From positions 42,348,001 to 42,412,000 of the forward strand of contig NC_087251.1 in the NCBI RefSeq assembly GCF_037042905.1: a DNA stretch of 64,000 nucleotides. Direction: 5' to 3'. Shown here piece after piece: positions 2,064 to 49,713 of the stretch. Position numbers and translations under genes: made by a program. Every line of letters begins with the position of its first letter. Within the stretch, counting starts at the first letter, position 1. This DNA is from Lytechinus pictus. Lineage: Eukaryota. The notes below the pieces were generated by a model. It was not told the DNA's origin. It saw nothing but the letters and a program-made list of their open reading frames with translations, and did no database searches.

Positions 2064-5000
2064 CTACAAAGAGAATGACCCATCCAAGAATATACAGATT
2101 ATACAGATTTCAAGAAAAGGCAATACCAATTCATGTCTTGTTTCATCATGTTCACTCACTCTTGCACGATGTACATTGTCTATTTGGTTGGTTGTACGCC
2201 AGCAAATACGAGACTGATAACATTTTGAACAATGCACACTGAGGCCCGTATACTGAAGTCAGGTTTAACTTAGACCATGGTCTAACTCTGTGCTAAAATT
2301 ATGGGAAGCCAAAGGTGTCAAAATTTTTAATAAGTTGTATGTTTCTTATGTTTACTGTGCTCTTTCCTGATTCATCGATGGTGAAGACGATCTAGTTATA
2401 CTTCCTGGACAATCATGAATGACTTGAGAGCCAAATGAGCTGAAATATACTATCTCTACCAATAGTGATTTATGTAACAATTGGCTATCCATACTTAAAC
2501 CACAACTTTAAACCTGAGTTTAAGTTAAACCCGACTTCAGAATACAGGCCATAACGTCCACTTAAACTACCTCTAAAACTGCACTCTACCCTTTGGTGGA
2601 CCTATGAAGTCAATCATCTACAACATAATGAAAGTCTGATCAAATAAAGAACATTGAGAGGCTGTCACTGAGGATGACTTACTCCACCTAGATCGTGGTT
2701 ATTGATCATTGTTTGATTATTGATTATTTAACAATTATTCATAATCAATTACATGAAGCAAACTTGGGCAACCAGCATTTGCATATCATCATAATCTCCA
2801 AAATCAAACTCATCCTTACTGTTATCTTTTTTTATGGAGGCATCGTAGAGAGTAGATTGATTAAACAGAAAAAAGTAAAATGCAGAAGTGTTGTGTACAT
2901 GTACATCTGCATAAAAGGATTAACCATATTTCGACCATAATCCAGATGCATTACATAACCTTTCTCATTTTCATTTTCTTACACAATTAAAGAACTAATC
3001 AAAAGATGGATATTGATACGAATAGGCAAGCATAGAAGCAGGGTGCTACATAAGCACTTGCCCGATTGCCCGGGGCAAGTAAAAGTTAGAGTTGGGCAAG
3101 TGTTTTGAAGCAAAAGACCAAAACTACTTGCCCGAATTGGGCAAGCAAAATTCTCACGTAAAATGACAAAAATTAGGGTCGATATGATATTGACCCTAAT
3201 TTTGGTCATGGCAGGCAAGAAAAAATCACTTTGGAAAAAGAAATGCAATAACAAGGTAGATCAGTTCATGTCAAAAGAGAGAAAAAGGTCAATGGTTTAT
3301 AAAACCGCAATAGACCTACATGTATTTTCTTTTGAAGAGGTAAAACTTTATTTCAGGATTTTTTTCGGGCAAGTGAAACAGATTTTTGGGCAAGTATATT
3401 ACAACCATTTAAAAATTTACTTGCCCAACTGGGCAAGTGCTTCTAAAAAGTTATGTAGCACCCTGCATAGAAGAATAACATGAAGAATGCATGTTACTTA
3501 CCCTAATACTAATATAACCAAGATATGCATCTTCACATCCTTCAATGAACCTAAACGTAGACTCTTTACTGTTCTCTACAATCACACTGTCTGGAATGTG
3601 ACCAGGAGCTGGAAAAAAAAATAAAACAGATGAATATCAAGTTTACCATGGCGATCAGAAACGTCTTTAATAAAAGGGAATGGGGAGCTTAGAAAGGGTG
3701 ACAGAAGTGAAGGATCTGAGCATGCTCTGTCCAGTGGGAATTTCAGACTGAGCATGTGCAGAATGATTTTTTAAAAAGGAAATCTTACGTACCCAATGCC
3801 TTCCATTGTGAGCTTTAAAAAAAATCCTTTTCGTATCATTTCAAAGAACAGGACTCCGTCTTACAAAGAGTCACGATTGATTCCATCAATCTCGAGTATA
3901 TGGAAATCCATAAACATCACAATTTTTTCTTCAAGAAAACTATGAATGTATGAAAATACATCATATCTAGAAAATATTTTCAACAAACATACATTTTAGG
4001 TGTTGACGTTGCTTGATTGGGTTGTGGTTGATTGAATCTATCATAAGTCTTTGTATGATGGGGCCCAGGGGTCAACAGTAATGGTAGAACAGTTTCACAA
4101 AAATTTGCTGATTAGCATTTTGTTAAATATTTCGTTGTGTTGCCAATTAAGAGTGTGAAATGATTGGCTAAAATCATAATATATTCTTCAGAAAAATTTC
4201 TACACACTGCATTGGGGTTGGTATCAATTCTCAGCATATTTTTCTCTCTATAATCCCCAAGTAACTGTTAACATTAAAGGGTAATCAGGAACTGTACAAG
4301 TGTAAAAGGAGACACTTTACTGCTATGGGTTAACCCATCATCAATTATGGTCAATACATACCAGCTCCTAATATGCAGACAGGTGTGTCTATGTACAGCC
4401 ACTCTCCGGTATAAACACCCTCGTGAACCAATATCAGGGTGTATTCGTTACCCTCCACCGATGACAGCGCCTCGTCTATCGTGTCGTAGTACTGGATATC
4501 ACGGCCTTTGAATAGTTCAGGAGAATCATGCATGTAGGCGGCATAGCCTGGCTTGACGTGGACAGCTGAGTACTGAGAATCGGGTATAGAAAACATGGGA
4601 TAAATGGCTACTCACTCCTTTATCAATCCGTATAATGACATTGGCATTATAATCATTATTCACAAAATAATGTAAATGGTGTTAAGAGAAACATCCAAAT
4701 GAATCGTAGTATTTAATATAAAATATGAAATACTACGATACTAACAAAAATCAAACAATATATGTTAACTAAGGATATATTATATAAATATACCAGGCTT
4801 TGAGTAAGTATAGCGGGAATTATTCATCTGAGGTTGGACTGGCATTACTATTTTTTCCCAAGGGGCGAAGCCCTGAGGGAAAAAATAGTGATTATGCCAG
4901 TATAACCGAGGATGAATAATTCCCTCTATACTTTCGAAATAAAGGCCTGGTATATTTGTTTTATATCCTACTTTAATAAGTTATAGAAATAGATCTTTAT

Positions 5001-8000
5001 AATCTAGTTCTTATACTCTTAGTTCATCCTTTTTTCAATCTGAATCAAACCAGCTGCGCTGACTGACCTGCTTTTCCTGAAGCGCATTTTCTTCGGTGGG
5101 CGTTTCATTTTCGACATCATCGCAAAATAGTGAGAATATGTTTGATCACATGATGCTATTTAAACCAATCAGCATACAGGATTTAATTTATGTAGGATAT
5201 AAATGTGACTACGGCATACCTACCATTGGAATAAACAAAATTTCCACAAGAAGGTTTTAGCATGTGTTTAAACTGATAGCAGGAATACATGTATGACTCG
5301 TCTTCTCCATGTCAAATGCTATTAATTACATTCATGTTTGCCTCGGCAATTGGTCAAACTCCATCAATCAGATATCTTACTACATAATCATCAGCAGTAA
5401 CAAGAAAACCGATAAAGCTACTTTCATTTAATTAATAAATTTGCCAAATTACAGCAAATGAGCATGAAAACGATCAACTGAATAATAATAAAAACCTTGC
5501 TTCATAAAATTATATCTTATTCCACATTCTTTGAAAATACTTGCCCCAAACACAAGTAGTAATATTATTTGAGAAACATTATACTATCTCGCAGTTTCAC
5601 TTCACTTCACATGTACAAATAAAAATGCAACTTACATTGCGTGTCACCATTTACAACTGATCGTCATTCAGTAACTGTTATCTTATAGACCTTATGCACG
5701 ACATCATGATCTCATAGCGCCCTCCCTCAGAGGATATACGAATATGTGTAAACGGAGTTGTCAGAGATACACCAGGTAATGGTTTCAGCCTCTAAGATGG
5801 CGGTATGATGAAGTCAGTGGATCAAGGTCTATTACTCAACATCATACAACATGCAAAAATCCCTTTCAGTTAAAGGGCAATTTTTCAAAACACCCATTTT
5901 CTATGGCAACCTCAAAAAAACAGAAGCGAATGAAGACCAATGGAGTGTTAGCAAAATACGTATATACATACCAAAGTTTTAAAACTCTCTTTCCATATGT
6001 TTGGCACATCTAGCTTGTCTGGCTGGACAAATTTGAATTTGGTTGGCCCTGGTCGCAGAAGGGGAAGAGATAGCTCATATACAGACTGGTACAACCGTTT
6101 CCTACAATGAAAAAAAGAAACAAATTCACATGAACCGAATGGCTTCTTAATTCTCTCAGTTCCTGTGACTTTAAATATCAAGGGGCCTCCGGGGGGGGGG
6201 GGGGGGGCGGCGCTTGGAGGGGGTGTTTTACAAAGAGATAGGTATGACTTAAGAGTCGCACTTAAATATCCAGTTTCATGTGGTGGTATATAAGGAATCA
6301 CCGCATTGGTGAAATCAAGCTGAGAAGACTCACACTACTGCGTATTAATCAACACGATTACGTGTTACATATCATTTGCGCGTCGGCGTTTGAGCATGAC
6401 TCTGTGAAACACCCCCCGGGAGTCTTGGCTGCAGAAAACTAGAGTCCCAGTTTCCTGCGATAGTGAAAGCAAAAGAAAAATTCACGGAATCCAGGAAGAA
6501 TGCAGAATTCACAGAATTTCATGGAAAACGCTCATTTTCAGGCAAACAAATAATGACGAGAAATACAGTGAAAATCATGAAAATCAAAGCAAAATCAATT
6601 AAAAATATACACAATCTATGAGTGAAAAATCTGCTCATCATACCTGTTTGGAACGTTTTGTTTGTATTTGTTTGTCATGCTGTATATCCATTGGAACTTC
6701 ATTTTTCTTTTTTTATTATTTACTATAGTTTTGTACAAGTCATGAAAGAACACAGACTGTCATGTTAAGAACAATGAAATGCATTAAACTGGCATTTTAG
6801 AAAACGGGGAAACAGGGGTCTCTAGTGTAACAATGGTTTAAGGGGCTCAAATGTTATTTTATTATGAAGATGGTAATTATGGAGATGGCAAAGGTCTACA
6901 AGAACTTTGGAGTGTTTCATGAAGCATCCTGCCAGTGATTTTCACTGACTAATTTGCTCTCAGCCAATCAGATGCAAGGATTTCAGTAGCTTATAACATC
7001 CGTCAGTGAAAATCACAGAGCAATTGTTTTGTGAAATGCTCTCATGATGGTGTGATGGTCACGATAGTGATACATGAAATGGAAAAAGTACTTTTGAATT
7101 TTTATCAAGGGCATCTTTATGGTATTAAAGACTTTTTCTCACTCAAAAAGTGAAATGCTTTTAGCATCATTGCCTCTTAATAGTATTCTGAACTAAGGTT
7201 TGATTTAATCTCTAGTTTAAAATTGTGGTTTATCTGTTAAATGTCAAATGTGACACAAATCTCCAACAGTACACGTTTAATTCGTCAACTCATTTGACAC
7301 ACAAAGTATTAATAACTGTTGGGAAACAATAACTTAATTGTTTTTCTTCACTATTAAAGATTGAGGAAAGATGAAAGTAAACATTAAAAATAACAAACTG
7401 ACATTTTTTGGCTTCCCATAATTTTAGCAGAGAGTTAGTCCTTGGTCTAAAAAAAATGAAAGCAGACTTCAGAATACGGGCCTAGGTATTCGAATGCAAA
7501 TTGTTAAAAACTCCTCAAACTGGGCAGGATCCTAAAAAAAAAGTAGGTCACACAAACCTTGCTCTACCTTACTGTAAAATATTCAATCATGCCTTCCATT
7601 CATACTGTACAACATGAGTTCATAGTAGCCTGCAGCATTTCAGAGTTCTAAAGCCGCAGCTATGGGAATTCTCGCTCACTTTTCACATCATTCTTCATTT
7701 GATGGTATCAATCAAATGAAGACATGCCATTCTTATCAAGATTTGGCCAAGGGCCTTTTCACACATGAATCTTGAACCATTATTGTAATGATTGCAATTC
7801 GTCTTTCACACAGAAAATTTGTACCGTAATTTGAGTGAAACTGGAATTCACCTCTGGAGTAATACTTGAATACGTGATTGTGATTAGCATTCGTGATTCT
7901 AGTTTGTTTTCACACATGCTAAATATTTGTCATTAGCCTATTTTTCACTGGAAACAGCATTCAAATTATTTTTTTTTTACCGTGTGAAAGGGCGGATAGT

Positions 8001-11000
8001 CTCCTCACCTTAAGGTAGTATAATCAATATCACTGTAACCAGGTTAAAGGAGAATTAGAAAAACATGGTTATAAGGTGTTTGCTGGGGAAGTTGGCCCCT
8101 ATTCACACCTGAAATTTAAAGCTATTGTTAGAGCACTTATTGTCAAACATATAACACACGATCAAGTTACAGGTGTGCATGGGGAAGTAAATGGAACCAT
8201 TTATTAAAAAGGTATAGATGGTGTGCATATTGCCCACCTCGCTCTAAGATGATAATGACCCATTCCTGTTTCTAATAGGTAATACGGCATAATAATCGAG
8301 TCTACCCAAGACTACTTACAGTGATGTACCAACAATTATTAAAGCTGCTCTCTATTCATTTACGGTCTTAATATTCCACAACTAGGCTAGATTAGCTAAT
8401 ATTGTACCCCAAAATAAGTTCAGTTCAAGGCTGAACCAGATGTATTTCCCTACAAAGACATTCATGTGGCCCATCTGTGGACCATCTATGTGGAACATCT
8501 GTCTTTGTTTCATCCTATAGCTTTCACTTGAATAAAATTGAATATATCACTAAAGATGCCATAATTATTCCAAACAGTAGCTGTGTCGAGCTGGATATCA
8601 AACATTGAATGTAACAATGACACCAATGAATTGAACTGATTTCTACAATGATTTTTTTTTTCTTTATATGTAGCATTACAGGGATGCAAGACAGTTTTAC
8701 CCATTGGGCCTGAAGAAGAAAGAAGAAGAAAAAAAAAAGCCAAAACAAGCTAAAGCCTAGTACAGTTTGGCCCTTTTGAGGGGAAAACTGCTTTTTCTAA
8801 AGCCTTAACATAGGGAGACTCATCAAAACTACATACCCCCCATGCATATCCTTTTCAGTAGCAGCCAACACTGAAATAGATTGGCATGGGGGGGAGGGGG
8901 GTAATGTGGCACAATGTGAGTCTCCCTCTGTCTGTCTGGCTTTGGGTAATGTTGCTTCCCTCTCACAAGGGCCAAACTGGGCTAGCTAAAGCCCAATATG
9001 TGTTTTACAAAGTTGATCCTGAAAAAAACAAACATGAAAGGTGAAGCAGTCAGGGCCTAAAGTAAGTCAAAAACTTGAAGACTGACAGTTCGGAGTATCA
9101 CCACTTAGAGACATAGTAGTAATAAAGGACAAAGCTATGATTAGTGATATCTGGTAGGTCATTAAAATTTGTTTTCAATTAACATCTTAAAGGTCAAGTC
9201 CACCCCAGGTAAATGCTGATTTGAATAGATAGAGAAAAATAAAACTAGAATAGTGCTGAAAATTTCATCAAAATCGGATGTAAAATAAGAAAGTTATGAC
9301 ATTTTAAAGTTTCGCTTATTTTTTCACAAAACAGTGATACGCAGAACTAGGTGAGTCAGTCGATGATGTCCATCACTCACTAGTTCTTTTGTTTTTCATT
9401 GTTTGAATTATATAATATTTCATAATTTATAGATTTGACAATAAGGACCAACTTGACTGAACCATATAGTATTAAACAATGCTAATTCCACATGTTCAGG
9501 GAGGAATTAATCGTTGTATCACTTGCCAATGAGGAGAAAATTAGAATAGTTCAAATTTCATATGATAAAATACAAAAGAAATAGTGAGTGGATGATGTCA
9601 TAGTCTCCTCATTTGCATACCAGCCAGGATGTGCATATAACTGTTATGTGAAACTAAGCGAAGCTTTAAAATGTCATAACTTTCTTATGTTACATCAGAT
9701 TTTGATGAAATTTCAGTGTTATGCTTGTTGGATTTTTCTCTTTTTATTCAAATCAACTTTTTGTTGGGGTGGACTTGTCCTTTAAGCAGTATAGAGGGTG
9801 GGCTACGTACCATAGAGTGAGATCGCTGGCAAGGGTGTTGAACCTCTTACATACACATGCCACATTGCATAGATCCTTCTCTAGGAGGTAGGAAAGGATT
9901 TTGATGAGGATCTCATCTGGCATCAACGACTCCAGGAAATTGTCATCTCCTGTCGTCCCTACAAAAAGGTAAACAAAGACAAAGAAGGGCTGCTCACTCT
10001 TCTGTTCATTACTATCTTTCTATTGAGATATATCGAACACTCTGTTAAACCAGAAACTTGACATGAAACCTTCACAGAAATGATATTCAATGTCTATGGT
10101 CTGACAATGGAAAATCCATTACTGTATTTTGTTAGTTTTTTAAATTTCACGAAATAGTGGAAAATTCATACAAAAATGATAAGACTGGAAAAATCAACTT
10201 TAAAAATCAATTATATATTATTTGAACATCATGTTTGGTTTCTAGTTCTTACAAAACAGTAGCAATTCAGACAAAAAAATCATGAGACTAGAATAAGATA
10301 TCTATACCAAGGCTCCACGCTAACTTTTTTCTTGGTGGCCCGAATGGTCCACCAAAATTATCAATTTCACATTCTTGGTGGTCCGCAAGGCAAATTTGGT
10401 GGCCCTAAAACAATAGGAAACATTACAATTTATCAAAACTTTGGTAGCCCAACTGGACAACCAAGTGTGGGCTTTTGTAGAATTTTGGTGGCCCTACTCT
10501 CATTTTTGGTTGCCCCGGGCCACTGCTAATGTCAAGCCCTGTTTATACCCTTCCCTATCTACAGCTGTTTGGTTGGGCAAAGAGGTGGTCCAAGACTGAC
10601 TAGGGTTCCTATTACATTGAGGCTCGTTATAATAACAAATGCACAATTTCTATAGGAAATCTACTTTCAGCCAATCAGATTAGCAGATTTCAGTAGCTTT
10701 TGAATGTTATTGCAAATTGGTTAATATTATATTATGAAATTGGTCCCAGGGTGGACGTAAACTTCAGATTAGAAAGGGCACACAGCTTCAGCTGGACCTC
10801 ATCCGAAGGTCACGCTCACATGGCTACATGCAGCAGTTGGAACAGGTTTATAGGATGTAACAAATATTCATGACCAGTTACGTCATGATAAGACCAAATC
10901 TTGGTTAACATGGACAACTTGGATTGGGTAGATTTGGTCAGCCAAAATTTTGAGTTAAACGGGAAACAGGGAGGAGAAAGACAAGAAGAAGAACAAAGAA

Positions 11001-14000
11001 AGGATTTCAAGACAACAAATGGTAGGTTAAATACTGTACCTCCTGATGCTTGAGTGTCTGTATGACTGGAAAGCCTTGATCTCTTGGCTCTCGTCATGGG
11101 AGATGACCCAGGTGATGAACTCTGTAAAGACACAGACAATAGGATGAGATTAAAGATACCATACAAATGTCATACTTGATACCCAAAATGCTGTGTTCAT
11201 GTGACGTTTCATTCAAATCACATTCAGAGTCAGTCAATCAATGCTTTGTTGATCAAATACAAATGCAAGCGTGAAACATGAAATGTGGAAAAAAGGTGTG
11301 CTTAGGAGTAGGTACTAGAAGGGTGATTCCCCAGGCAAGAACCATGGATGTCAATAGTTGATCTTAGGAGAGATCTAAATTGTGATTCTACCATAGGCAG
11401 TCTTCGGTCACACAATCAAGGTCAAATGTCAGTTAGGGTTAATGAACATAGTACATTATCAAATGAATGGCGGATTTTGTACATAATTATTCTAGTCATT
11501 TTCAAAGTCAGCATTGCTGCTATATAATCATGTCATGCAGGCGGGACTGCCAGAGGCACTCCACTATTAAAAGCTATGCCCAAGTGTTTAATAATGCATG
11601 CATGCATCTTAACAGGATAATATCTGGGCCGCCTGAAATTCCGTTTTGCCACCCGAACCTCCATAGTCAAGTGGCCCGGCTGGCCACCTAAAAAAAAAAG
11701 TTAAAGGTTTCAAATTCCCGACCACAATTCCTAGTCTATGATTAAAGACCCTTGCTGATTAATTCACTTCATGGAATTTGAGAAAGAAGAATAGCACAAG
11801 ACCTGTCTAGTGCTATGTCAATGTGTTTGACCAACGTTTTGATAATCCTAATCATACATGTAGTAAACAAACCCAATTCACCTCTTTCTGGCTACTATTC
11901 AGAGTCGGTCCTGCAGTCAGTTTGTGTCTGTACATGTATGTACCTTCCATGCATTTACATGGGAAGATGTGGTTATTGGTACATACATGTACATGTAAAT
12001 GGATGCAGCGAATGGTTGGCATTGTGTGGAGAGCAGAAGTAAATCAGACTTTCCCAGAATGCACAAATTGGCAACTGTTTGACTGAATACTAGCCTTGGC
12101 CTTATTTCATCTGTTTATCACACCTGTCTCATCTCAATGGGCACATTCACACTAATATAAAGTGCATGATCTGTCATGTTATAATACTAATGGTGACTGA
12201 TGATGCAGATAGTAAAGTATATAAACTGGAGAAAAGGTAGATATTCATGTTTATTCCACTTTCAATATCAGAAGGGAATGTTCCAACTGGATTTTGTCGA
12301 ACACCCTTGTTCGTATCACACGAAGACCCCGTTCTCAACACAATTCTTAAAACTAGTTTACTGGAAACCGATTCAGAAAACCAGTTTGGAAGATCCCTTT
12401 GCTAGCGTTCCCACTCGATACCTGAAAGTGGTTTTCAAAAGCACTTCACGGTCGCTTCGCGGAAAGCGATCTTGTTGCTATGGGAACGCTCTCAGTGAGG
12501 TGACATGTTTCGTGCGAAATTCAAAACCGCAGCATCTACACACAGTGTGTGGAGTAGCACTTTCAAAATGTGCAAAGATCGCTTCCCGAAGAACAATTGT
12601 GTCCTCACTTACGCTAAAACCAGTTTAACAAGGCAAAGTGATCTTCAAAACTACATCGTGCGAGGTGGTTTTCTGAACCGGTTTGGAAGATCGCTTCCAA
12701 GACCGCTTTGACCGTTCTCATTACATGTTAAACTACATGTAGTTTCCAGTAAACTAGTTTTAGGACGGTAGTGAGAACGGTGTCTCTGTTGATTATCAAA
12801 ACTGACACTCCCCTTGTATGAATACTGAGAACTAAAGATATGTACATGTAGCATTTAAAGTCATAACAATACAACCTGTACATTCCAACTCTACATGTAG
12901 GCCTACATGTACATGTATGATGTACATGTATTTTGGCCTGGCAAGCAAATCAATCAACCAAGAATAATGTTTCTCCCCCCCCCCCTAATCAATATCATCT
13001 TGACTTCACTGAAATAGGCATACATGTAGATGCATACTGACCAGATTTTATATTTTTAAGCATAGGCCCTACTTATTCAGCAAGTAACAAAATAAGTAGG
13101 CCTACCCATTTACCCAGGGGGTGGGGGGGCATCCCCTTTTTCAGACCTAATTTTCAGTTCCCTAGATACTCCAAATGACAAAAGTTCCGTTCACAAGCCG
13201 CACGCCCCGCTCTCGAGACCAACGTTACGAAACATCTCAGTTCCCAAGCCCTGTCTAAATTGTACAGTGCGAGCATCGCAAAGCTTGCAGCTGCATGCAC
13301 GGCTTCATATTTCTTCTACATACATATACCACAAAATACAAATACTTATGCAGTCCATGTAATTTCATCAGTCCCAGGCACATTTGAATCAATATTTGAT
13401 ACGCAAGTTTGACTGGAGTCACTGGATTCCAACTTTTGGCTAAATAATATGGGTAACTGAAAAAGGAATTGGGATGAAATATTTGTACATATTAGCATAT
13501 AGATGCAGGCTCAGAGTAATTTCAGAATACCTCACATAGGCCAATATGTAAGACAAACATATAGGCCTATACAGAGTACATGTGTTGCTATCAGCTGCAT
13601 ATACATCATTCTTCTTGTCAATTAAATTCATTTTCTGAAACAGACGGGTTGAGAAGTCGACCAAACCTCTCTGGGAACAAGCATTGTCTGATGCATTCAC
13701 ACTGACCAAAATTACGTTGTCATTGCACTAGTTAATCAATGTAAAGTACATGTCGATCTTCTGCGGTATGAATGCACCCGAGAGCCTTCAACGACTATGA
13801 CTGATACTTCCCTCCCGTGCGCCATTCGATAGTAATCACAGACTTTCCTGTGTGTGCTTCCCAGCAAGTCAACCAATACAAGCAAAAGATGCCCCCCCCC
13901 CCCCACCTCTCCCCCTTCACAATTCTGACATCTTGTGGGGGAGGGGGATACAATCAGGTCTCCGTATTTTGATACTTGAAGGACAATTTCTATCAAAGGG

Positions 14001-17000
14001 CACATTTATATAGGCATAAATGTACAGCAAAATGGGGAAAAGAAGGGTAAAAAGGGGCACACAAAATATCCAAGGCCTATGCCTGGCTTGGGCATTGAGG
14101 TAAGTCAATAAGGCAATCCTGGCCATGGCCTTTGATAGCCTACATGTAAGACTAATTATTTAAGCCCTGGCAAACATGTGCAGTTTTTTTCTTCTTGAAA
14201 AATTTTATTTCAACTTTTAGGTCTACTACATGTATTTCCTGAAATAAATCAATGATTACACATACACATGTACATGTAGGGCCAGGAGAAAAAAACCAAA
14301 CAAATTCAATAATTTTATCAGATCTATGAGAAAATTTAATTTTCACAATTTCACACAATAAAACTGGTCTGAAGTACAGCCTTATATATTCATTTACATG
14401 TACATGTGAGCAATAGTATATTACATAGGCCTACAGATTTAGTTGATAAAACGATTATATTTCTTACACACAAATAACAAATAAAGCCTTCATGATTACA
14501 CATATGAATGTACATGTAGGGCCAGGAGATAATAACAAAACTCCAGGGGATACATTTTGAGCTCACTAACTAAAATTTGTATTATGATATACATTAGATG
14601 CTATGAGAATTTCCAGGGCCTTTTTCAGTTTTCTAGGGCTCTTTTGGGGTATTTCAGGGATTAGCCCCCCCCCCCTGTAATATTTTCCATCCGTTGGGCC
14701 TACACGAGAAATGAACTTTATAAATATAAACTCATTAGACTGCATAGTGTATTAGAGTACATGTGTGTAGATAAAGATCTACACACATGTACTCTAAAAC
14801 ATAATTACAAATTACTTGCACTTTCACAACCACCCCCCCCCAAAAAAAAGAAGAATTATCAGGACTGACAATGAGATTGTTTCTAAGATTTGCTGCTTTC
14901 TTTGTTCAGACCTTCATACAGAATGAAACTAAAGAGAAACTACATGATGAGCATGATCGGTTCATCACGGACGGACATTTGATAGATTTTGAAAACTTTA
15001 AAGGCTTGTAACAAATTAGGAATAAGATGAACATGGTTCCTTTGTGTTTTATAGTGAAGGGTAGGACAAAGTATGCTGAATGATGAAAAAAGTTTGTTGC
15101 CATGGTTACCTACAAACATAGGTAGCCACTAAATGTGCCATATCACGGACGGACATGATAGAAATGTGGTTTTCTGAATTTTTGAACATTTTTATGGTTT
15201 CTATCTAAATAGCTTAACTTTGACCAATAATTGTTAATGCAACCTATACTCAGGTATGTTAGCTTCTATGTTCAGCATATTGAATTCTTAACCAATATCA
15301 AACTTCTGAGAGAATTGCAAATATTTTCCATCTCGGACGGACATCTCGGACGGACATCACGGACGGACACAATTAAAATACATTGGAAGTACCTTGTAAG
15401 AAGTTCTTATTACTTGTTTGGGGGAACAAATGCTATTGAATTGATGATTTGTACATTTTTATATATGATTAAAAAATATTAGTTGCACAATCAAGTTGCT
15501 ACAACTTGATTTAAGTTGTAGCAACATGGTTTCTATGCTAGACACACAAAATAAGGCATATGATTGCTTTTAAACACAGTTCTTTTCAAAATCAAATATC
15601 CTAATGCACATTGTCTTCTTTTCAATTTAGAGAATAGTTGGTAGCAAATCAACATCCAGTGGATCAATGATCATGTTGATACTTTTTATGATATATCATG
15701 ATGATACATGTTCATACATTTTTAGGCATTCATTTTCAAAGAGCACATATTTTTTTTATGTCCATTAAGTAAATCCATAAGATTCACAGGTTGCTGATCA
15801 TTATGCTTGTTTGGTGGATCAAGTACAACCACAACACTTGTCCAGGCTCTCTTCAAATTCATCTTTTGTCCATATTAAAGTGGAGACACCCCTTCACATC
15901 AACAGTCCTCATGTATTTAGGCCCTGACCGAATCCAAAATTGAAATCAAATACCAATTAAACTTCTAAACACTGCAGTGCAAGCTTTATATGAATTGTAT
16001 GCATTTTCAGATTACCAGATCAGCAATTTGCTCAAAATTAGCTCAAAAATGGACTTTAAAAAAAGGAATTCTTGTACTTTTCACAAGCCTCAAGGACATG
16101 ATGCCATGTTCTGTTATACTCCTTTCATAAACACAATTATGCGGCTAATAGCAGCATAATTTGGTCGTAAAATCGTAGGAGGACCAGAGTTATCCGCACT
16201 ATTTTGATGCTGCTATTATCCGCATAATAGCGGCATCGGGACAAGATTTTGACTTTATGAACGCATTCCAAAGTAATGCGGATAATTGCCATGGTGCGGT
16301 CACAAGGTCACCCTTTCCAACACAGCCGCATCGGAGGGGGTGTGTGTGATTGCCATGACGATAATCCGCCTTTTTTCAGGACGGGCCTCGTACAAATAAT
16401 GCGGATAATTTTTGGAGTTTGTGAACGCAATTTTTATTGAATTATCCGCATTACTCTTAGGCGGCTAATTGGAGGATGGGTTTATGAAAAGGTTTTTAGA
16501 AGCATTGTGAATCCATAGGTTTGTACATGGAAAAAATACTTTCTTCTTTTCCATCACTTTCTGCAAGCTTCAATTGATGAAATATGTAGCTTTTGACTTA
16601 TTCTTGCTCTATTTCATTTCCTGCTTTTTGGCATACATGTAGCTTCCAACTCTATCTGCATTCCAATTATGTTTTAAAAAAAATTTCCTTACAACAATTA
16701 AGCCCCAATAACAGCCAAAGAAGGATTTCACAAAAATTGTAAAGAGTTGTAGGTTTCCATCCTTTTGAGTTCTGAATAATTCTCAGTACCATTTTTCACT
16801 GCAAATTGGAACTAAAATTAAATTCATAATCTGCTCAGTATTTGCTCATTGTCTGTCCGTGATGAATTTAATGTCCGTCTGCGATTATTTGATTGATTTA
16901 TAATATGGATAAAATGTATGGATTTTAGCTATATAAATTATGAAATGATGTACAGTGTCTAGTGAGATGCTTCTACACACTTTTATTTTTGTTTCTATTC

Positions 17001-20000
17001 TGATAAAGAATAAAAAGCTGAATCCATACATATTATCCATATCATAAACTCAATAAAAATGATCACGGACGGACATTAATTTCATCACGGACGGAAATTT
17101 CAAAATGGAATGTTAACATCTACCAGAAAAATTTACCTCCCATATTTTTCTACTAATTTATGTTTGATGATAGATTAATGTTCAGAGTACAAGGAAATCC
17201 AAACCAAATTGGAATTACTTTGAAAACAATAAAACTAGAGTGAATTGAATTTGAGTGAATTTACATTGTCCGTCCGTGATGAAATTAATGTCCGTCTGTG
17301 ATCATTTTTTATTGAGATTATGATATGGATAAAATGTATGGATTTCAGCTATGTTCAAATAAAATGATGTACAGTGTTTAGTGAGATACCTCTACACCTT
17401 TTTATTTTTTATTTCTATTCTGATAAAAAATAAAAAAACTTTTTATATTTTTTTTCATCACGGACGGAAATTTCAAAATGGAAATGTTCACACCTACCAA
17501 AAAAAAGTACTTCCCAATATTTTTTTCCTACTAATTTATGTTTGATAATAGATTAATGTTCAGAGTGCAAGAACATCCTAACCAAATTAGAATAACTTTA
17601 AAAACAATAAAACTAGAGAGAATTTAATTTAAGTAAAAATGTCCGTCCGTGATGAGAGGTAATAGCACCCCCACGAATAAAATGGACTATTCCAGTACTT
17701 TCGGATTTATCAATCTTCATGAAACTGAGTTCTTTGAAACCTGAGATATCAAAGACTATCTTAAAAGCAATTTTGATAGAAATATCTATAAAAAAAAATT
17801 TCACCTCAATGCTAACCCTTAACCGATCATGCTCTGTACTTGACCTAGAGGTTCTTGCCTCTAAATAAGAAGAGAGTATGCAAGTTTTGGCTTGATGAAG
17901 TATCGAGATAAGGAGTTTACACACACTGATTCACAGTGATTCAGCTTCTGGAATTCTTTCCTCTCCCATCACACCGTTTCCTCAAATGGTTGAGATCCTT
18001 CGCATCATTCTCAACATGCTGCCAAAATCATTTATTCTACAAGAGCAATTGGATCACACAATCTTGATGTGTGTTTACTTTTTATCAGAACAACAATTCA
18101 AACTGTTAACCTTGCAGAAACACCTCTTCCTCTACTGTTTTTTTGTGTGTGGCTATCATGTTAACTCTTAAATATTATAAACAATAAGACCCACCTTCAT
18201 ATATGTAATTTGCTTGGTTCCTTTGCTCCCTTGCTTGCAATGGGGGAAATTAATATGGGTTGTTGGTGAATTAGACCCTGAAATGCCCCTGAAGTATCCC
18301 ATAAAAGTTTGAAAATGACCCCCATAAATAGAAGGAAAAATAACTCCAATCCAAGTCCAACCTCAATTCAGAAAATTTGATTTCCCCCAAGAATGTATAA
18401 TTTGCATACGTGACGTATTACGCGTAGCAAATTACATGTACATGTGGCAAATTACATGTACAGGTACATGGGAACATGGATTGAGAAAACTATCTGGCAT
18501 ATATTCTGGATACATAAATTTAAGAGAACATACAGCAGGCCCATGAGAATCCCTTAGGCCCGAATTCACAAAGATTGTTTTGAAATCCCACGGTTGAGTC
18601 CATGGTTTATGCAGATTTCCTGTATGAATCAGGCTTATTTTACCACGTATATTAAAAAATGTCCAATGCTGATGAGCGCTTTTGTCAGAGTGTGCCAAAT
18701 TGACGCCTGTTGCCGTGGTTATCTACGCTCTTTCATTCATGAGTCCACTCTTCAAACAGTGGACTCATGAATAAATTAGCGTATCTAACCATGGTAACAG
18801 GCGTCAATTTGGCACACTCTGACAAAAGCGCTCATCAGCATTGGACATTTTTTTTACATGCGCCTGATACGCGCTAAATTAAGCGTAATTTATACAGGAA
18901 ATCTGCATAAACCATGGATTCAACCGTGGGTTTTCAAAACCACCTTTGTGAATTCGGGCCTTAATGTTCGCAATGTTAAAAGAGATGATCTGTCATGGCT
19001 GCTCAGCATGATTACATTATAATTTTAAGCGACATATCTTACATTCATCATGATCCAATGGTTTGTCTCCCTCTATCACTGCCCAGCAGGTATACCCTTT
19101 CACTTGCATTGCAATGTCATTTCATACATGCTATGCATGCTGTCAAGTGCAATCAACTGATCCGTAGCTTTCATTTAGGATGCTAATCTATCCTCAACCC
19201 ATGAGTTGAAGATTTGAAGGTGCTTTGTGCATGAAACATGGTACTGCGTCTATCACGTACAATGCAAATCATGCAACCATGATAAGTTTGAATTCTATGT
19301 CTGTCAAAAGCATCATTATATGTTACATCTCAATTGTTCTTGTAAATATACTACATGTGTGTGGATTTAGACTATTACAAGTATCCAGTGAAATTTTTTG
19401 TTAAAGAATCTACATGTACATGTACATTTACTTGACGTAACGTACATCATATCATATTTGGTGGTGCAATGAATTTGGTGCTGATACCTAGTATCAATAC
19501 CTGGGGAGCGTTTCATGAAAGGACTTGTCGGAAGATTTATCCGACAAGTCCTGTTTTATGATCCGACCATTACCGTAGTTACATTGCTTCTCAGCCAATC
19601 AAAATCAAGGAAGGTGTCGGACGATAATGCTGATGAAACACTCCCCAGGGGTTAATACATGTAACTGGGGCCATGTCTTAAAGATTTACAACTAAATACT
19701 ATGCTATTATGGCAACTACCATGGTAACAGGGCTCAGCAGCCAATCACAATCAAGGGTTTCATGGAAGTTACAATAATGGTAAATTTACAAATATGTCTT
19801 TAGGAAATGGGCCCCTGGTGTTCCTCAAAGCAGCGCTGAACTAGTGGGGAGAAACAAGAATCACAAATCAAAACATGGCTTCTTGTGCAGAGCTTTTGAT
19901 CACAGTAATGCCCTCTTTTTAAAGCCCACCCAACATACATCGCAGGATCAGTGAATATGATGCAAGAAGTATAGGTCAACCCTGAAGTGTATCCCATACA

Positions 20001-23000
20001 TGTCATAAATAAGAAGAAGTCCTGTGGTAAAATCATATTTGAGATCCCTGTTCCGTTCATTAGATTCCTAGCATCCATGGTTCTCCAGAATCAGCTTTAA
20101 AAAAATACAGGTCATGTCTGCTTTTGAAAGAAGTATATTTTTTTTCAACCGACGAAAGATTGACTGAACGCAACCGTGATTTGAACTAAACGTCTTTACA
20201 AAAAATAATTCTAGGATACAAATGTGTCAGTTGAATGCAGCCCAAATAGAGCATCATTAAACAGGCACAAAATAATTCTGAAAACTGCATCAACTATCAG
20301 ATGTAAAATATGAAAGATGCCGTAAAGTACTGATATCTTCAGGGATATGCTTGTCTCGTATTTCTCCTTTTTTTTTATATTTGACGTTCTAATTTGACGG
20401 ACTAAGTTCAATTAGTAAAAGAAGGGTAGGCTGACATAGGGGACATGTAACAATGATGGGGTTTACATGTAGCTTACCAAGTCCCATCTGCCAGAGCACA
20501 GAGTTGATGCCTTTCGCCTCAGGCTGTAGGGCTGCTGTGATTGGTCGTGGTGTGGGCAAGATGTGCGGATTTTGGAGTTGCTGCCTAATTCTGTGGACAA
20601 GGTAAAAGAGACATGCATATTAGTTCAGACATGTGTATTAAATTCACCTTGTATTTGATATATTCGACAAGATGATAATAATAACTTTCATTGACGCAGG
20701 GTAGCCACTTCAGCTGTTAGCTTCCTTCCAGCAATCCATTATTAACATTACCCTTCTCCATTATTTACATCAAGCGCCTGACAAGAAGGCAGATACCAAT
20801 TCGCATAGGATCTTGAAAACAGCATCTTGAGATGGTCTTGTGAGCAAGTTTAGAAGATCATTTCATCATGAGAAGGCGCCCTCGCCCACTTGAACATTCA
20901 GTCAAGTTAAATAAACCGATTGTCATGAAAAAGGTTTGGTGGAAACTGGTTCAAAAGACCGACAATGAACAGGGTCTTCCTTCAGTTAGAAAGAACAAAA
21001 GTCACTCACATATCACAGCAAAAGTGAATTTTTGTTGTGATAATGTTCTGTGTGTATTCCAATTATTCAGAGTGTTGTCATAATAAAAGGTGACTCTGTG
21101 GTGTTAAAGTTTTGCATTGCCAGGAATATGCTACAGCTAGGGAATGACGGTACAAAGTAAAAATCACGGTGTAAGAAAACAGATTTAAGAGAATGTAATT
21201 TTATAGTGCATGGACTGAAAGCTGTAATACGGTGTAAATGTTAATAGTCGTACGTAAGGAAACTGCGCAGTGGCGGAAACAGATGGGGGCAAACTCGCTT
21301 TCATTGGGACAGCCGGGTATCTTGTGAACGTGTTTTTCTTTGAATCAGACACAAGAGCTTGGGAATGAGATGTGTCAGGAGAGAGTAAGTACGAAGATGA
21401 GTGCATCTTATTCCTAGAGCAGCAGAATATTGAAACGTATGAGGCCAGTGATCAGAAACAGGGGTCATCAAAATGCACATCCCATAATGAATACATGCAC
21501 TTGATTGCTCCCACCATGGACCTAGTAGGTCCATGCTCCCACTTAAAATCTACTACACTGTATGTTACATCATAGTTTTTTTTTCTTTCAAATTGTTTAT
21601 ATTGCATAATAGTAAGACATGCTTTTGGCAAGGTCAGTCATATTGACCTCGTCAGAGGACAGAGTGATAAAAAACACCCAGCCTTGGCAATGCATGGAGC
21701 TAATGCATGAAAAATCTCAATACTGCCAGACCTCTGTTGGATGTACTTGTCCAGGTAGGATATGGCCACTAAGATCGTGCCTTGTGTTCCCTGCTGCAGT
21801 TTACACTCATTACAGTGCATGTACATGGTATACAGGCCTATATCATCCACAAGGTCAATGAACTGTACTTGCAAAATTATCTTTGGAAAGTGGAACACTA
21901 TTCTACATATCTTTCAAAATGAACTCAACAGTCATTGAAAATCAAACGAAATTAACTACATTTACTTCCAGTCCGGAAAATACATATTTTTAAGGGGGAT
22001 GGGTAATTTCAACATGTCACAACACTCAATGCCCCAAAAATCCCCCAAATAGCAATGCTTTGGGGTGACCACCTTTTCTGGGGTTGCCCAAAGATCGGGC
22101 ATAAACTATATTCAAGATTCATGAACATTCAGTACATCAATATTCTACATGTAAAAATTGTACATGAACATGTATGGTACAATTACAAAAAATCTGCATA
22201 ATTAAGAAGCTCTTCAAATGAAAGAAATAGCTCCCAAAATACAGCTATTGCCCAAATGTGAGAAATCCTAACTAAATATTTTATTTCTTGTCGTGTTTAC
22301 TGTTTTTTTATATAAATATTTGCCGTATATATGAAGGTCTGTATATATTTGTATGAGTACAATGTGTACCTTATAATTAAAATTCTCATAACTGTCATAG
22401 TATTAGTGCTATAATTCAATTCAATTCCTTATCACACTGTATTAGCCATCAATCCTCCTACATGGGGGGAGGTACAGACTACAGTCTCCCTCTAGACATA
22501 ATAACAATCTTCTTGGGAGCATGACAGGAGATTCCTGACAAATGAAAAAAAAAAAATCCACTGAGCAATACCCCCCCTGCCCCCCCCCCCCGGCATCCTT
22601 AACCTTCTCGTCTGTGTAAAATTTGATGACCTCTCCTTGTAAGATGACTCTTAGGTGTTTGCTAATTTACACCTCTTTTTCATTTTTTAGAAGATTTTTA
22701 GAAACCTGTATTGATGTATAATATCTTCCTAAGTAGTTTGCTTTCTCCTATCGAGTATTCACCAAAGTTGACAGCCCTGTATAATTATGTACCAACATAC
22801 ATGTCATGTATCTCAAAATAGTCTCTCTACTTTTTTCAAGATTTGCTTTGCATGTCAACACCGTACGTGTACTTTATGGTAATAATGTTATCAGAGAAAT
22901 ACACGTGAAGTGTAAGCCATCTTTTCCAATGTACATGTATCATGAATGATCACCCCCCTGGAACCATGAAAAAGAATTAGTGAATTCTCTTATCTGTGAA

Positions 23001-26000
23001 GATATTCAAAATACTTTGAGCTACTATGTATTTGTTTAAATAATATTCCATAGTTTATCTCAAAATACTTCTAATAGTAAGCCCCCACATTACCAACAAA
23101 CGCAAGGACAATCTGGTTATGTGTTTATGGCGATTGCCATGGTTACGACTGTTGTCATTACAGCTGCCAATAAGGAAGTACCAATAATCACTACCAACGT
23201 GTTTACACAAAAAATACAGTGATAATTACATGTTCATGTCTATTATACATGGACAAGCACGAAGTGTGAATTGTCTATTTGTTGTTGATGGCACGCCTTT
23301 TAATCTTAATTGTATTAAATTAAATGTATGTGGACATGTATGTTATAAGAAGTAAATAGATAACATCCTGCTGTTTGAGTTATCTTGGAAAGTCATTTTT
23401 TTGTTTTAAAGTATTCTTTTATTTCTTTTTCCGGTGAATACAAATATAAACTGGCTTCATAAATTTCATAAATGATACATCATAATAACTTCATAAATAA
23501 TACATCAAGGTACCAGTAAATAAGTAATTCCTAAGCATATACATAAATTTATAAATTAATCCATTCATTTTCCAATTCACTGAAAGAAATTAAAGGAAAA
23601 GTCCACCCCAACAAAAAGTTGATTCGAATAAAAAGAGAAAATCCAACAAGCATAACACTGAAAATTTCATCAAAATTGGATGTAAAATAAGAAAGTTATG
23701 ACATTTTAAAGTTTCTCTTGATTTCACGAAACAGTTATATTCACGTCCTTGTCGGTATGCAAATGAGGAGACTGATGACATCACTCACTCACTATTTCTT
23801 TTGTATTTTATTATATGAAATATTCAAATTTTCTCCCTGTTGTCGTGTGAAATAAAGATTAATTCCTCCCTGAACATGTGCAATTAGCATAGTTTAATTC
23901 TATATGGTTCAATCGAGTTGGTCTTTATTGTCAAATCTGTAAAAAATGAAATATTGTATTATTCAAACAATAAAAAACAAAAGAAATAGTGAGGGACATC
24001 ATCGACTGTCTCATTTGCATGTCACTGAGTTGTGCATATCACTGTTTTGTAAGAAATTAAGTGAAAATTTAAAATGTCATAAGTTTCTTATTTTACATCC
24101 GATTTTGATGAAATTTTCAGCATAATGCTTGTTTTATTTTCTTTATTTATTCAAATCAATATTTTTCTGGGGTGGACTTGTCCTTTAAGAAGTACAATAC
24201 AGAAAAAAAGTATGGTGTCCTACATATAATTGTAATGGCAATGCCTGCTACCCCCCCCCCCCCACACATGCCCTCCAGATTTGAATGACATACATTGTAG
24301 GCTACATATTCACCAAAATTATCAAAATATCTTGGCCTATACATATACTTTCATGTGCTATTATGCTTTGCGAGTTTTCAAAGAATCTGTGATTAAAGGT
24401 ACTGAAGTGGGGAAGGGGAGATAGAGGAATCAACTATAAAGATATTCTAGATTAAAAATGGACATGAAAAGGAAGGATAAACACAACCTGATGCAAGTAA
24501 CAAAGAACCAAATAATTTGGGCACACAGTCGACCGAATAGACTGGTACAATGTGTGAATATGGTGTGGAGTGGAGCAACACGCAAACTGTGCAAATGCAG
24601 AGTGCGTACGTACACGAAGGGCCGGCATACATGCATGCTAGCGCGGGCAACTTGGGATTCACCGCTCTACAGTACATACATGTACATGCCTGCTCATAGG
24701 CAGTAGTGTATTATGCATGATGCTCCCTTTCTCTCTCAGTATGCGGCTGCTGCGTGAAATATTCATGCAGGGGAGATGGATAAAAAGGAGCAAACGCTTG
24801 GACACCACCAATTAATAACATTAGTGGGTAGTCTGGCAAGCTCACCAAACCCAACACGCTTTTGTTCAACAAAGACGTTGCTGCACACCGAGCAGGTTTC
24901 ATGGAAGAAATCATGAGAAAATAAAGGATGATGTACATGACTTCAAGTGCCTGCAGATAGAGCGACAAGCCACCCCCTTGATATACATGTTATGATATAG
25001 GCTATATACATGTATCATTTTCAACGCTAAGAAGTCACAGGAGACAACACACACCAAGAGGAATACATGTATTCCCGTTACTTGCGTTAAAACAATAAAT
25101 GTAGGTCATTTACCGGTAATTATTTTGAAGTATAAAAAAAAAACATGTAAAAACACAAACAGCATTGATTAACTTCAAACGAGAAAAAAGGCCTAGATAG
25201 ATGTGTTTAATAGCTAAATGTAAGTCAACCACACACATGTACAATGGTGCCTACAAGACAAGTATGGTAAAATTGATATTTTTACTGGTAATATTGATAT
25301 CAAGACTTCAAAACAAGTGAAAGAAATGTTTACTTCTAAATCAATTATACTTGGCTCTGAATTGAATTAATTATCAACTTACATGTATTACATCTAGGCC
25401 TAATAACTAGTACAGATTGAAATTAAAGATATGCCAGTATTTTCCCACCACAAGTCTACACTTATTTTTTTCTTTCACACAAATACTGTAGCCTATTAAT
25501 TCGAAAAATTTACCCAATACTGTACTTTTTTAAATATGGAAAAAAAATCTCAAGGATTTTAAATATATTTGCTTTTGCAAAATAAAACCAAGTTTTAAAC
25601 ATACTAATAGTGCTTTAATATACATCGATGTTTATCAACAAGTATTAGTGATCGGGAAGGGTATTATTTATAAGAGGTATGTACATTTAGCCTAGGTAGG
25701 ACATGGCAAAGCACTATAGGCCTATAAATGATAACAGTATGTAGATTTAATAGCCACACACAGGCAGGTGTAGGTGGGACTAGACACAAAGAAAGCTCAG
25801 CAAGTGTAACTAACTGAATAGCACTTATGTAGATTGGCTTCCTAATCAACATTCACACATGAGTTTCACTGCTTCACTCCAATCAGGACAAAGGATGCTA
25901 TTACCGTGAATCAATGACAAAGGCATGTAGCCTACATATTGTCGGTGTTCGTCCAAACCGTCATATCAGTCAATTTTGGTTTTAAAAAATGATTTTGAGA

Positions 26001-32000: not shown

Positions 32001-33630
32001 GAAATTATACCAATACAAACAATTCCATTCAACGATACATGCCTAAAACTACAAATGGGTAAAAAGTATAACCACTGTAAATGTAGGCACAATACTGCAC
32101 ACAGACATATGTTGTATATCCTGACATTTTAGACAATATACATGTACTACATGTACATATATAGAAGGAGTGTCTTATAAAATGTCTGCTGAAATATACC
32201 TGTTCTTTATCCTGACGACATGTTTTGCACAAGGAGTACATTGAAGGCACAATCTGTTCATACATAGGTTGACCCTGGAGGGAAGGAATTTAGGCAAGGA
32301 TCTGCATGTCATGATGAGTCAAGGGGTGAACTTTACAACCCTCTTAGTTTAATGACTAGAATTTGCATTTTACTGGCTCATGCCATCTTGCAAAAAAAAA
32401 TGTCTGAATATAATCTAAACGATAGCTGTATCTTTAAAGGGAAGCTACTCTTGTGGAAAAGATTGAATCAATAATTGAGGTTTTCAAATTCTAGTATATC
32501 TATATGGAAAATGTTAAGACTATTATAGGAGAAGGGTTCGATTCAAATAATTATTTCTAAGATGCCCTTATATTCAAGCTATGGCTTAAAGGGGCTGAAG
32601 TATTTGGGCCAAACATTTGTGTGTCCTATTGCTATTGAGTATTTTTAGTGACAATTTTAAAGAACAAACGCTCAACGGCAATACCCTAAAATTCATCCAA
32701 GACTTTATTCAATTTTTTTTTTCAAAAAGGAGCTTAAAAGCATAGGTCTACATCAGAGATTCTGATGAATCCAAAAGATATACATGCCTGCAGAAATGAC
32801 AATCCCACGTAAATTTACAAGATTAGATTGTCATCTTGTCCCAGACTCCCATACAGGCCAACGTGTATATCGAAATCAAATTCAAGAAATAGATCTCTCA
32901 GAGTCAAGAAAGAAGGGAATATTTATAATTTACGTGGTAGTTAATGACTAAAATCAAACTAACATTGGCATTTGATACCAAATATATTCTTTAAGTTAAG
33001 GCAGACCTCGGCCTATTTTAGAATACTGTACTAGAATATATGATAATGTACATACATTACACACATGCACTTGTATTCAGGAGATCATGAAGTGGAGAAA
33101 AATCCACCAAATGTATGTCAGTATGACTTCCTTCTTACAGAAATACATTCTTCACACGGACATGTTACAGAATACATAAGGCTATAACTCTCGGATCCTC
33201 TATCAGCCTTGATCCTGTATTATCTTGACAGTTTGTTGCCTAGCTATACATTTCCCATTAGCCCCACAGAGGCTGTACCACAAATTACAGAGGATATTAT
33301 ACTCGGGCGCCAATATGGCCAGTTTCCTGCCAACGCACACAGAATCACTGCAAAATGTGGATCCCTGCCGAAAAAAGAGACATTTCAAACATACTTCACA
33401 GGGTATACTGCTTGAAGAATACTGTAAAGGGACTTTAAAATGTTGAAAGGCTTTTAAAAATTGCACTGAAGTAATGTACATGTATTTGCTTCTGTATGTA
33501 TATCAAATTAACTATATGTATTATGCCTCTCTTGGAAAAGATTTTATAAGTAGTAGTACTACCAAATAGTAATAGCAGCAGCAGCAGCAGTAGTAGAAGT
33601 TATAGTAGTAGTAGTAGTAGTAGTAGTAGC

Positions 33631-33662
<32 letters not shown>

Positions 33663-33707
33663 AAGTAGTTGTAGTAGTAGTCATAGTAGTATAGCAGTAG
33701 AAGCAGC

Positions 33708-33777
<70 letters not shown>

Positions 33778-33786
33778 TAAGTACAT

Positions 33787-33883
<97 letters not shown>

Positions 33884-33922
33884 GAGTAGTAGGAGTAGCA
33901 GTAGTAGAAGTAGTAGTAATAG

Positions 33923-34000
<78 letters not shown>

Positions 34001-46166: not shown

Positions 46167-46420
46167 CGTCAGAAAGAAGAAAAAAAGCAAATTTCTCACG
46201 TAATTTTGACGAAAATCTCCTCCTTACCAGGCATCATTCGGAAGGTCACCCTGTTAAGCCTAGCCTGCGCTGCGCCAGCGTACCGGTTCCTTATACACTC
46301 TCTCTACGTTACACACGCGTATCCGTACCCGCACAGCTTTAATACGGTACCGTACCGTACATAAACAATAGACAATTCAAGCTGCTCATGCACTGCAAAT
46401 CTATCTGCGCAGCTTGAAAA
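46167..46420 (-). promoter_or_regulatory. Putative FBXO11 5'UTR/promoter (CpG-rich)
   Basis: Local CpG enrichment immediately upstream of the exon 1 ATG, against CpG-poor introns. Confidence 0.45.
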
Positions 46421-47163: not shown

Positions 47164-47249
47164 GTCCATGGTAATATTTTCCAGCATTATTCATAAAAAA
47201 ATAAGCGTCCCCCTAAATTTCAGGAGGAGAGGACAGTCCCTCCTAAAAA

Positions 47250-49650: not shown

Positions 49651-49713
49651 ATCATTCATGTTCATGGGAGGCGCCATTTTCCGAAAAGTATACATGAAGG
49701 GCGCCAAAATCTG

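Follow-up and report, generated by a model that had tools for sequence, protein, structure and literature searches.

How did a vocabulary of 8-base words, each a palindromic 4-base core between two TA dinucleotides, come to crowd the introns of a gene? The question is raised by a 64,000-nucleotide stretch of Lytechinus pictus DNA (assembly GCF_037042905.1, contig NC_087251.1, positions 42,348,001 to 42,412,000 of the forward strand), hereafter the window, in which TACATGTA, TAGGCCTA and TACCGGTA recur (cores CATG, GGCC and CCGG, respectively). All coordinates are window positions, and the features discussed are collected in Table 1. The interval 12841-14530, on which an initial annotation had centred, falls within one of the introns of an F-box gene encoded on the minus strand, between the exons at 20478-20590 and 11121. 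The words are real, and their origin by insertion is established at a few sites. They are probably scars left when TA-targeting DNA transposons of the IS630-Tc1-mariner/pogo group were excised and the break was closed by end joining, with later hits on the scars' own TAs. A single TA-bounded scar is already known; what is unusual here is the uniformity, the density, the inheritance and the vocabulary of several words.

Word counts and definition of the unit

The window was found to contain 69 copies of TACATGTA, 14 of TAGGCCTA and four of TACCGGTA. Dinucleotide-preserving shuffles (n=200) gave means of 1.5, 0.52 and 0.29 and maxima of 5, 3 and 2, respectively, and the observed count was attained in none of the 200 for any of the three words. 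The corresponding third-order Markov expectations were 6.2, 0.55 and 0.27. The frequent recurrence of TACATGTA and TAGGCCTA described in the initial annotation was thus confirmed and lies far above chance, and the positions the annotation gave for the chain at 12892-12917, the chains at 28466-28540 and the four copies of TACCGGTA were all correct. With the TAG microsatellite set aside, TACATGTA was the top over-represented complex 8-mer in the window. Among the other 13 TA-palindrome-TA words, TACTAGTA was mildly raised (6 vs 0.7 expected, two of them within one miniature inverted-repeat transposable element, MITE), as was TAGATCTA (5 vs 1.0 expected, attained by 2 of 200 shuffles). The interval 12841-14530 holds 11 TACATGTA, four TAGGCCTA and no TACCGGTA; since the TACATGTA words at 14271 and 14511 belong to a 50-base sequence that is duplicated locally, they probably represent one event.

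The unit is the whole 8-mer, with the TA duplicated around the core. Counted on both strands, TA followed TACATG in 138 of 227 occurrences, TAGGCC in 28 of 48 and TACCGG in 8 of 13, that is, in 58-62% of cases compared with a background TA frequency of 7.8%, and it followed the control TATGCA in 0 of 57. Variants with a single change were over-abundant (80 vs 36 for CATG, 16 vs 9 for GGCC), the words showed decay at all eight positions, and they were scarcer inside recognisable repeats (5 per 694 TA) than elsewhere (74 per 2588 TA; p 4e-4). The excess of one-off variants, together with the scarcity in repeats, points to a long and continuing build-up in which words slowly accumulate and decay. 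Around isolated words, the flanking sequence gave no sign of a target-site consensus.

Insertion at TA dinucleotides

Related repeat copies served as the outgroup for word sites. In addition, contigs of a relative were compared over 11750-14900 (3.15 kb) in four runs, with 12 of 104 indel rows listed; runs X1, X2 and X4 represent a diverged relative with a share of words of 0.14, whereas X7 contributed repeats only. The best-polarised site was the TACATGTA at 12734, which lies in a high-copy repeat covered at a depth of approximately 39,000-50,000, several hundred-fold above the 30-100 of unique sequence. At this site, 31 contigs of X1, 28 of X2 and 38 of X4 omitted exactly six letters, corresponding to 18%, 8% and 9% of depth, respectively, and additional records break on either side of the word and then continue with a single TA. 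Over approximately 12760-13100, the relatives' contigs were a net 13-16 letters shorter, a figure in which single indels are not separated. The word at 13021 was left out of the insertion count, as the substitutions at 13023 and 13027 could reflect either a displaced gap of six bases or two genuine changes.

Within the window, paralogues were scored for six word sites and 58 control TA-N4-TA sites. Clean 6-base gaps were obtained at 27307 and 42353; of the remaining word sites, 14271 shares its word with the duplicate at 14511, and 32148 gave a spurious short match. No control site among the 58 contributed an independent clean 6-base gap: seven scored better when cut, of which two overlap the gap at 42353 and five lack a clean 6-base gap. 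A strict indel filter returned four six-base gaps among 197 clean indels, one of them at a word, and missed both 27307 and 42353. For the TAGGCCTA at 49410, the word-bearing unit was longer by six bases than one sister unit and by four than three others, the comparison with the fifth being unclear.

The same core was present at 12734, 27307 and 42353, as well as in the metagenome loci L054 and L058 described below, despite differing flanks. A core that stays constant whatever flanks it excludes a hairpin copy of the flank. On these comparisons, in which related repeat copies lacked the word at four sites, TACATGTA is clearly to be read as an insertion at TA, and not as a product of substitution, at 12734, 27307 and 42353, and there is a fair case for reading TAGGCCTA likewise at 49410. 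Of the three 6-base insertions at an ancestral TA that the initial annotation had anticipated, CATGTA was thus recovered at three sites and GGCCTA fairly at one, while CCGGTA, the insertion anticipated for the four TACCGGTA copies, was left without indel evidence. Separately, an 8-base insertion relative to sister units of a 163-base tandem repeat was noticed at 41865-41874; it is TA-bounded, carries CA...TG around two extra bases and may be an imprecise scar.

Chains on shared TAs

Words are also joined through shared TAs into chains, some of one core and some mixed. With local density considered, CATG-CATG pairs numbered 6 vs 1.8-2.4 expected and CATG-GGCC joins 4 vs 0.9-1.1 (p 0.01-0.03); the excess of the mixed joins is approximately fourfold. 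Unit chains of CTAG and GATC on shared TAs were observed at 57465-57480, in the scar-poor region, and at 30915-30928, inside a MITE.

Metagenome contigs were scanned for pairs of TACATGTA that enclose four letters, each of them G or C, which yielded at least 120 loci; the counts that follow refer to the 120 matches listed. These include animal-like, alga-like and some bacterial contigs, as labelled from gene content. The middle four letters were GGCC in 62, CCGG in 24, CGCG in 4 and GCGC in none, and after near-identical flanks were merged, GGCC in 57 and CCGG in 22 of 102. Mixed chains were present in 86 of the 120 loci. An identical scan of prokaryote genomes produced 16 loci, with one GGCC and no CCGG (p 5e-7), and viral contigs contained no match to the chain pattern. 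Beyond the selected word, GGCC-centred loci carried 44 CATG, 51 GGCC and 1 CCGG, compared with 98 CATG, 17 CCGG, 20 GATC and 2 GGCC in CCGG-centred loci (expected 0.8-4.2 each, duplicates kept), and this contrast indicates that word use is lineage-dependent. The alga-like locus L008:1-10005, which shows no CpG depletion, holds 38 TACATGTA and 16 TACCGGTA, none of them in its four long open frames, and its long mixed CATG/CCGG/GATC chains are intergenic. CTAG and GATC words are very common in the alga-like loci L008, L031 and L064.

Pairs of these contigs differ by whole units. L054 has 12 extra bases at a TA relative to L041, a tandem copy in L058 has gained CATGTA on both TAs of an older unit, and L056 exceeds L063 by six bases, with a separate 12-base gap over TACCGGTA that is not clean. 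The idea put forward in the initial annotation that the TAs of footprints are targeted again was therefore supported by the chains and by the stepwise addition in L058, whereas no allele pair of full element and word was found among the rows listed for 11750-14900.

Candidate source elements

The three most enriched cores match the terminal bases of four TA-flanked elements in the window (CA, CC and two GG). Three of these, the MITEs starting at 30583, 40081 and 50329, had been proposed initially and were found with the ends assigned to them, TA on both sides and termini equal to the CCGG, GGCC and CATG cores. They are short, with terminal inverted repeats and no long open frame, and each occurs once in the window; a 114-residue frame in the 30583 element had no Pfam match. 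The GG..CC MITE that lies directly against the TACATGTA at 40937 displays the arrangement predicted to precede a mixed chain.

In a table of pogo elements (PMC7386202), the ends CAGTG, CCGTA and GGGGT are entered 110, 150 and two times, respectively, and the rows listed carry TA/TA; CAGTG/TA ends are given for pogoR, and Passer pogo elements typically have CCGTA/TA ends. Among the metagenome contigs, L007:1715-2648 is a 934-base TA-flanked element with CAGTG ends, on a contig that also carries CATG and GGCC words.

Proposed mechanism

An element would insert at a TA and duplicate it, as is established for the IS630-Tc1-mariner/pogo group. The transposase would then cut two bases inside each 5' end, which is established in some members and presumed here, so that the first two bases of the element would remain as a 3' overhang on each flank. 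End joining would fill both overhangs and ligate them into TA, two bases, their complement and TA. The site would thereby gain six bases, and the core would reveal which family end (CA, GG or CC) had been there. Later elements would presumably land on the two TAs of the scar and give rise to mixed chains. The scars would be inherited and subsequently decay by point mutation, and their inheritance would imply that precise repair of the somatic type acts in the germ lineage.

Several of these steps have precedents. Tc1/mariner elements duplicate TA and are excised with 3' overhangs, and after end joining 2-4 of their terminal bases stay behind, with a TA on each side (PMC6943129, PMC2874221). 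ISY100 cleaves two bases inside its 5' ends (PMC2170065), and a scar of four added bases is the typical somatic Tc1 footprint, at 78% (PMC13148408).

Comparison with known systems

A close mechanistic likeness is offered by the somatic Tc1 footprint of C. elegans, which shares the TA target, the net product of TA, four bases and TA, and non-homologous end joining (PMC13148408). The worm scar is somatic, however, and in the germline the sites are restored by homologous repair or yield varied polymerase-theta products (PMC13148408, PMC4490562), whereas the presumed scars in the window are uniform, inherited, present at approximately 2.5 per kb and of three or more cores. Sleeping Beauty likewise leaves element terminal bases between two TAs (TACAGTA/TACTGTA; PMC6943129), but three bases rather than four, and its words number 17 in the window vs a model-dependent 8-15 expected, so they are not the dominant scar. 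Passer and pogoR share the TA/TA flanks and the CCGTA or CAGTG ends of the 30583 and 50329 MITEs (PMC7386202); in addition, Passer leaves 0-4 bp footprints and, in human cells, prefers genes and the 5' parts of expressed genes (PMC9976928). Conversely, the window has no transposase by which to place its MITEs, and a genomic build-up of scars is not described for Passer or pogoR in the available sections of PMC7386202 and PMC9976928.

Inherited TA-bounded footprints, with a new element at the TA of an older footprint, are known for Stowaway in a Triticeae beta-amylase intron (PMC1925063), although that case is a single site with varied footprints, and the window is a region-wide field of uniform words. 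The identical word TACATGTA is very abundant in non-coding Phytophthora DNA as motif-1/AM-20, where it is interpreted as a transcription-factor site (PMC3520976, PMC11134190). The former paper (2012) raised an origin as a Tc1 footprint and set it aside for abundance and conservation.

Distribution of the words along the gene

Word density was 29-40 per 1000 TA in 11.7-42.4 kb, compared with 3.3 in 1-11.7 kb and 1.9 past 42.4 kb. The patch spans the upstream (5') introns of the F-box gene, and it stops where CpG begins to increase. Across the window, word density inversely tracked the CpG observed/expected ratio (Spearman -0.36, with an equally low value in 1 of 63 shifts); within 0-42 kb the correlation was not significant (p 0.13). 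The coding part of the gene at 1-11.7 kb is equally CpG-poor (0.46) and yet contains only three words, so CpG depletion or methylation alone does not explain the patch. Methylation-stimulated excision (PMC3680223), which was considered as its cause, was found insufficient on the same ground. The 5' preference of Passer mentioned above may serve as a lead to the location of the patch.

The description of the words as recurring in FBXO11 introns was borne out for an intron of an F-box gene, on Pfam evidence, with the refinement that they are concentrated in 11.7-42.4 kb and do not extend over the whole gene. The gene is one that we take to be FBXO11, after the human protein.

Table 1. Positions of the words, candidate elements and gene features in the window.
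Feature	Position	Strand	Remarks
TACATGTA, best-polarised insertion site	12734-12741		Within high-copy repeat
High-copy repeat hosting the 12734 word	12280-12785		Inverted arms 12348-12762
TACATGTA	27307-27314		Clean 6-base gap in inverted paralogue near 31600-31718
TACATGTA, final word of dense patch	42353-42360		Clean 6-base gap in inverted arm 42209-42259
Two CATG units in 163-base tandem repeat	41211-41224		Ambiguous; +12 at TA probable by eye, second gap needed
TAGGCCTA in 109-base repeat	49410-49417		GGCC missing from 5/5 sister units in by-hand alignment
TACATGTA in 12843-14518	12843, 12892, 12904, 12910, 12923, 13021, 14141, 14227, 14271, 14395, 14511		
TAGGCCTA in 12843-14518	12898, 13097, 13562, 14426		
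TACCGGTA	25111-25118		Further copies at 36448, 53375, 62665
Four-unit mixed chain joined through shared TAs	12892-12917		CATG, GGCC, CATG, CATG
Three neighbouring chains	28466-28540		GGCC+CATG; CATG+CATG; CA+CATG+CATG+CA
Mixed chain CATG+GGCC	38988-39007		Decayed or half units
TA-flanked MITE, CCGTA ends	30583-31190		Candidate CC..GG source
Second TA-flanked GG..CC element	34497-35312		Unbiased scan; 17/20 terminal bases pair, outer flanks do not
TA-flanked MITE, GGGG..CCCC ends	40081-40934		Right TA abuts TACATGTA at 40937
TA-flanked MITE, CAGTG ends, 363-base arms	50329-51145		Candidate CA..TG source; in scar-poor region
Dense patch	11855-42360		75/81 TACATGTA/TAGGCCTA outside microsatellites; limits set after seeing data
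F-box exon, open frame	9756-10019	-	Pfam PF12937, E 7e-16
Upstream coding exon of F-box gene	20478-20590	-	In-frame join to exon starting 11121

Evidence against an excision origin

A number of observations weigh against reading the words as excision scars. The indel record is small, as this genome provided only three clean CATG insertion sites and one fair GGCC site. At 41211/41217, MAFFT does not back the cut form and the scored test went against it, and the automated scored test did not recover 49410. None of the four TACCGGTA copies has a paralogue in the window, hence their lack of indel support. The excess of chains over local density is modest, and half scars for GG or CC ends were not enriched (TAGGTA and TACCTA together 20 vs approximately 26 expected).

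No transposase was found in the window, nor was a GA..TC or CT..AG element with TA flanks, even though TAGATCTA and TACTAGTA are raised, and the TAs flanking the MITEs are target duplications by inference. GGCC has a possible second source in a GGCC-ended MITE with TTA on both sides at 18556-18961, which has relatives at 2243-2550 and 7183-7483 and is presumably PIF/Harbinger-like. Among the rows listed for the 3.15-kb stretch in the four runs, no full element was found at a word site. In the dense patch, approximately 75 words were counted but no intact CA..TG element bounded by TA at either end; on the excision model, almost all insertions would have had to be lost again. The scar-poor part, too, contains TA-flanked MITEs, among them the CA..TG element, which the excision model does not reconcile with the concentration of words in one 31-kb patch. 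Excision is also far from uniform elsewhere: C. elegans germline revertants showed 26 products among 103 (PMC4490562), and rice excisions were mostly irregular, with 8 of 94 perfect (PMC4423477). The excision model of the initial annotation accordingly held with respect to insertion at TA and matching element ends, but it did not account for the patch, and no allele with the full element was found among the rows listed.

Alternative explanations

Host repair or recombination that writes units of TA and a palindromic 4-mer at TA without any transposon, for instance by copying them into a break, is unlikely but fares best among the alternatives. It would accommodate the missing full-element allele among the rows listed, the far greater number of words than of intact elements, the sharp bounds of the patch, and a vocabulary of CATG, CCGG, GATC and GGCC that recurs in animal-like and alga-like contigs, GATC having no matching element found. 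It is at odds with the duplicated TA, with an insert that is independent of its flanks at 12734, 42353 and L054 and hence not a hairpin copy, and with the selective choice of palindrome between two TACATGTA, in which GGCC and CCGG prevail over CGCG and GCGC. We know of no host enzyme that writes such units, which also counts against it.

Slippage, whereby a TACATG or TAGGCC formed by chance serves as the seed for tandem duplication and the chains are 6-base microsatellites of recent origin, is much less probable. CAT adjoins TACATGTA in 32 of 132 flanks vs 4.6 expected, and another CATG unit does so in 12; pure runs can extend in this way, which may add to homotypic chains. Nevertheless, most words are isolated, the related copies at 12734, 27307 and 42353 have no CATG to duplicate, and mixed chains cannot arise by this route. 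Isolated insertions at seedless TA sites refute slippage as the origin, although it may extend chains.

Selection for transcription-factor sites, as proposed for TACATGTA in Phytophthora promoters, is marginally more improbable still. The word is abundant in those promoters (PMC3520976) and is bound by a MYB-related protein (PMC11134190), and the patch spans the 5' introns of one gene. Yet the words arise by insertion, inside repeats too; none of their eight positions is spared from decay, and one TA grammar is common to three cores. Selection on a site would not create a 6-base insertion, although a transcription factor may later have come to use the scars.

Finally, conversion of CG-rich precursors to TACATGTA by CpG deamination in a methylated gene body, one of the substitution routes named in the initial annotation, would fit the fall of word density with rising CpG observed/expected but can be practically discarded, as TACGCGTA decay should yield four products alike and they numbered 69, 0, 4 and 1 (with no TATGCATA), as it cannot yield GGCC or length changes, as the equally CpG-poor 1-11.7 kb is almost word-free, and as the word-rich loci L008 and L064 show no CpG depletion.

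Other features of the window

A TACATGTA word at 20464-20477 starts at intron position +7, right behind the splice donor of the 20478-20590 exon. A 460-base TAG microsatellite at 33567-34074 contains TACATGTA at 33782, and a TAG run at 35330-35410 contains TAGGCCTA. On the plus strand, a word at 44853-44882, which we take to be YY1-like, overlaps an ATG and is followed by a donor-like GTGAGT; this is possibly the first exon of a downstream gene and, if so, would place a bidirectional promoter close to one limit of the scar patch. A plus-strand methyltransferase gene (Pfam methyltransferase) at 53413-58230 is nearly word-free.

Inverted-repeat elements flanked by TTAA were located at 9186-9786, 23590-24188, 37021-37633, 43814-44404 and 60032-61825, none of them with a word; the first three constitute one family, approximately 85% identical. 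Inverted 280-base repeat copies at 27173-27450 and 31519-31800, 4 kb apart, represent separate copies or else the paired arms of a single large element. The window had no match in Rfam, the frame at 4354-4611 had no solved-structure match, and an Atlas search returned 'F-box' and nothing further.

Significance

No genome-scale account of such scars in animals was found in the literature searched, which mostly did not include subscription papers. As a tentative generalisation, to which we give somewhat less than even weight, many non-model eukaryotes may hold a dense, inherited excision archive of the form TA-(XY-Y'X')-TA, in which the word denotes the family end, its use is specific to the lineage and its density marks the 5' introns of particular genes. 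If this is true, germline excisions in these lineages are mended by precise end joining of the somatic type, insertions are mostly of the hit-and-run kind, and the Phytophthora TACATGTA and other abundant 'regulatory' words may be scars that were later adopted by transcription factors.

Germline excision rates and sites of DNA transposons are hard to measure, since repair usually hides an excision or the mark it leaves is irregular. Were the words scars, each such genome would hold a countable, family-labelled and roughly datable excision record, and assemblies alone could address how many insertions leave, which repair path the germline employs and which chromatin is visited. Caution in motif finding would also be called for, since the top 'regulatory' palindrome in introns or promoters can be a mutational product. 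The words would then provide a legible history of transposon jumps, events of which hardly any mark ordinarily survives.

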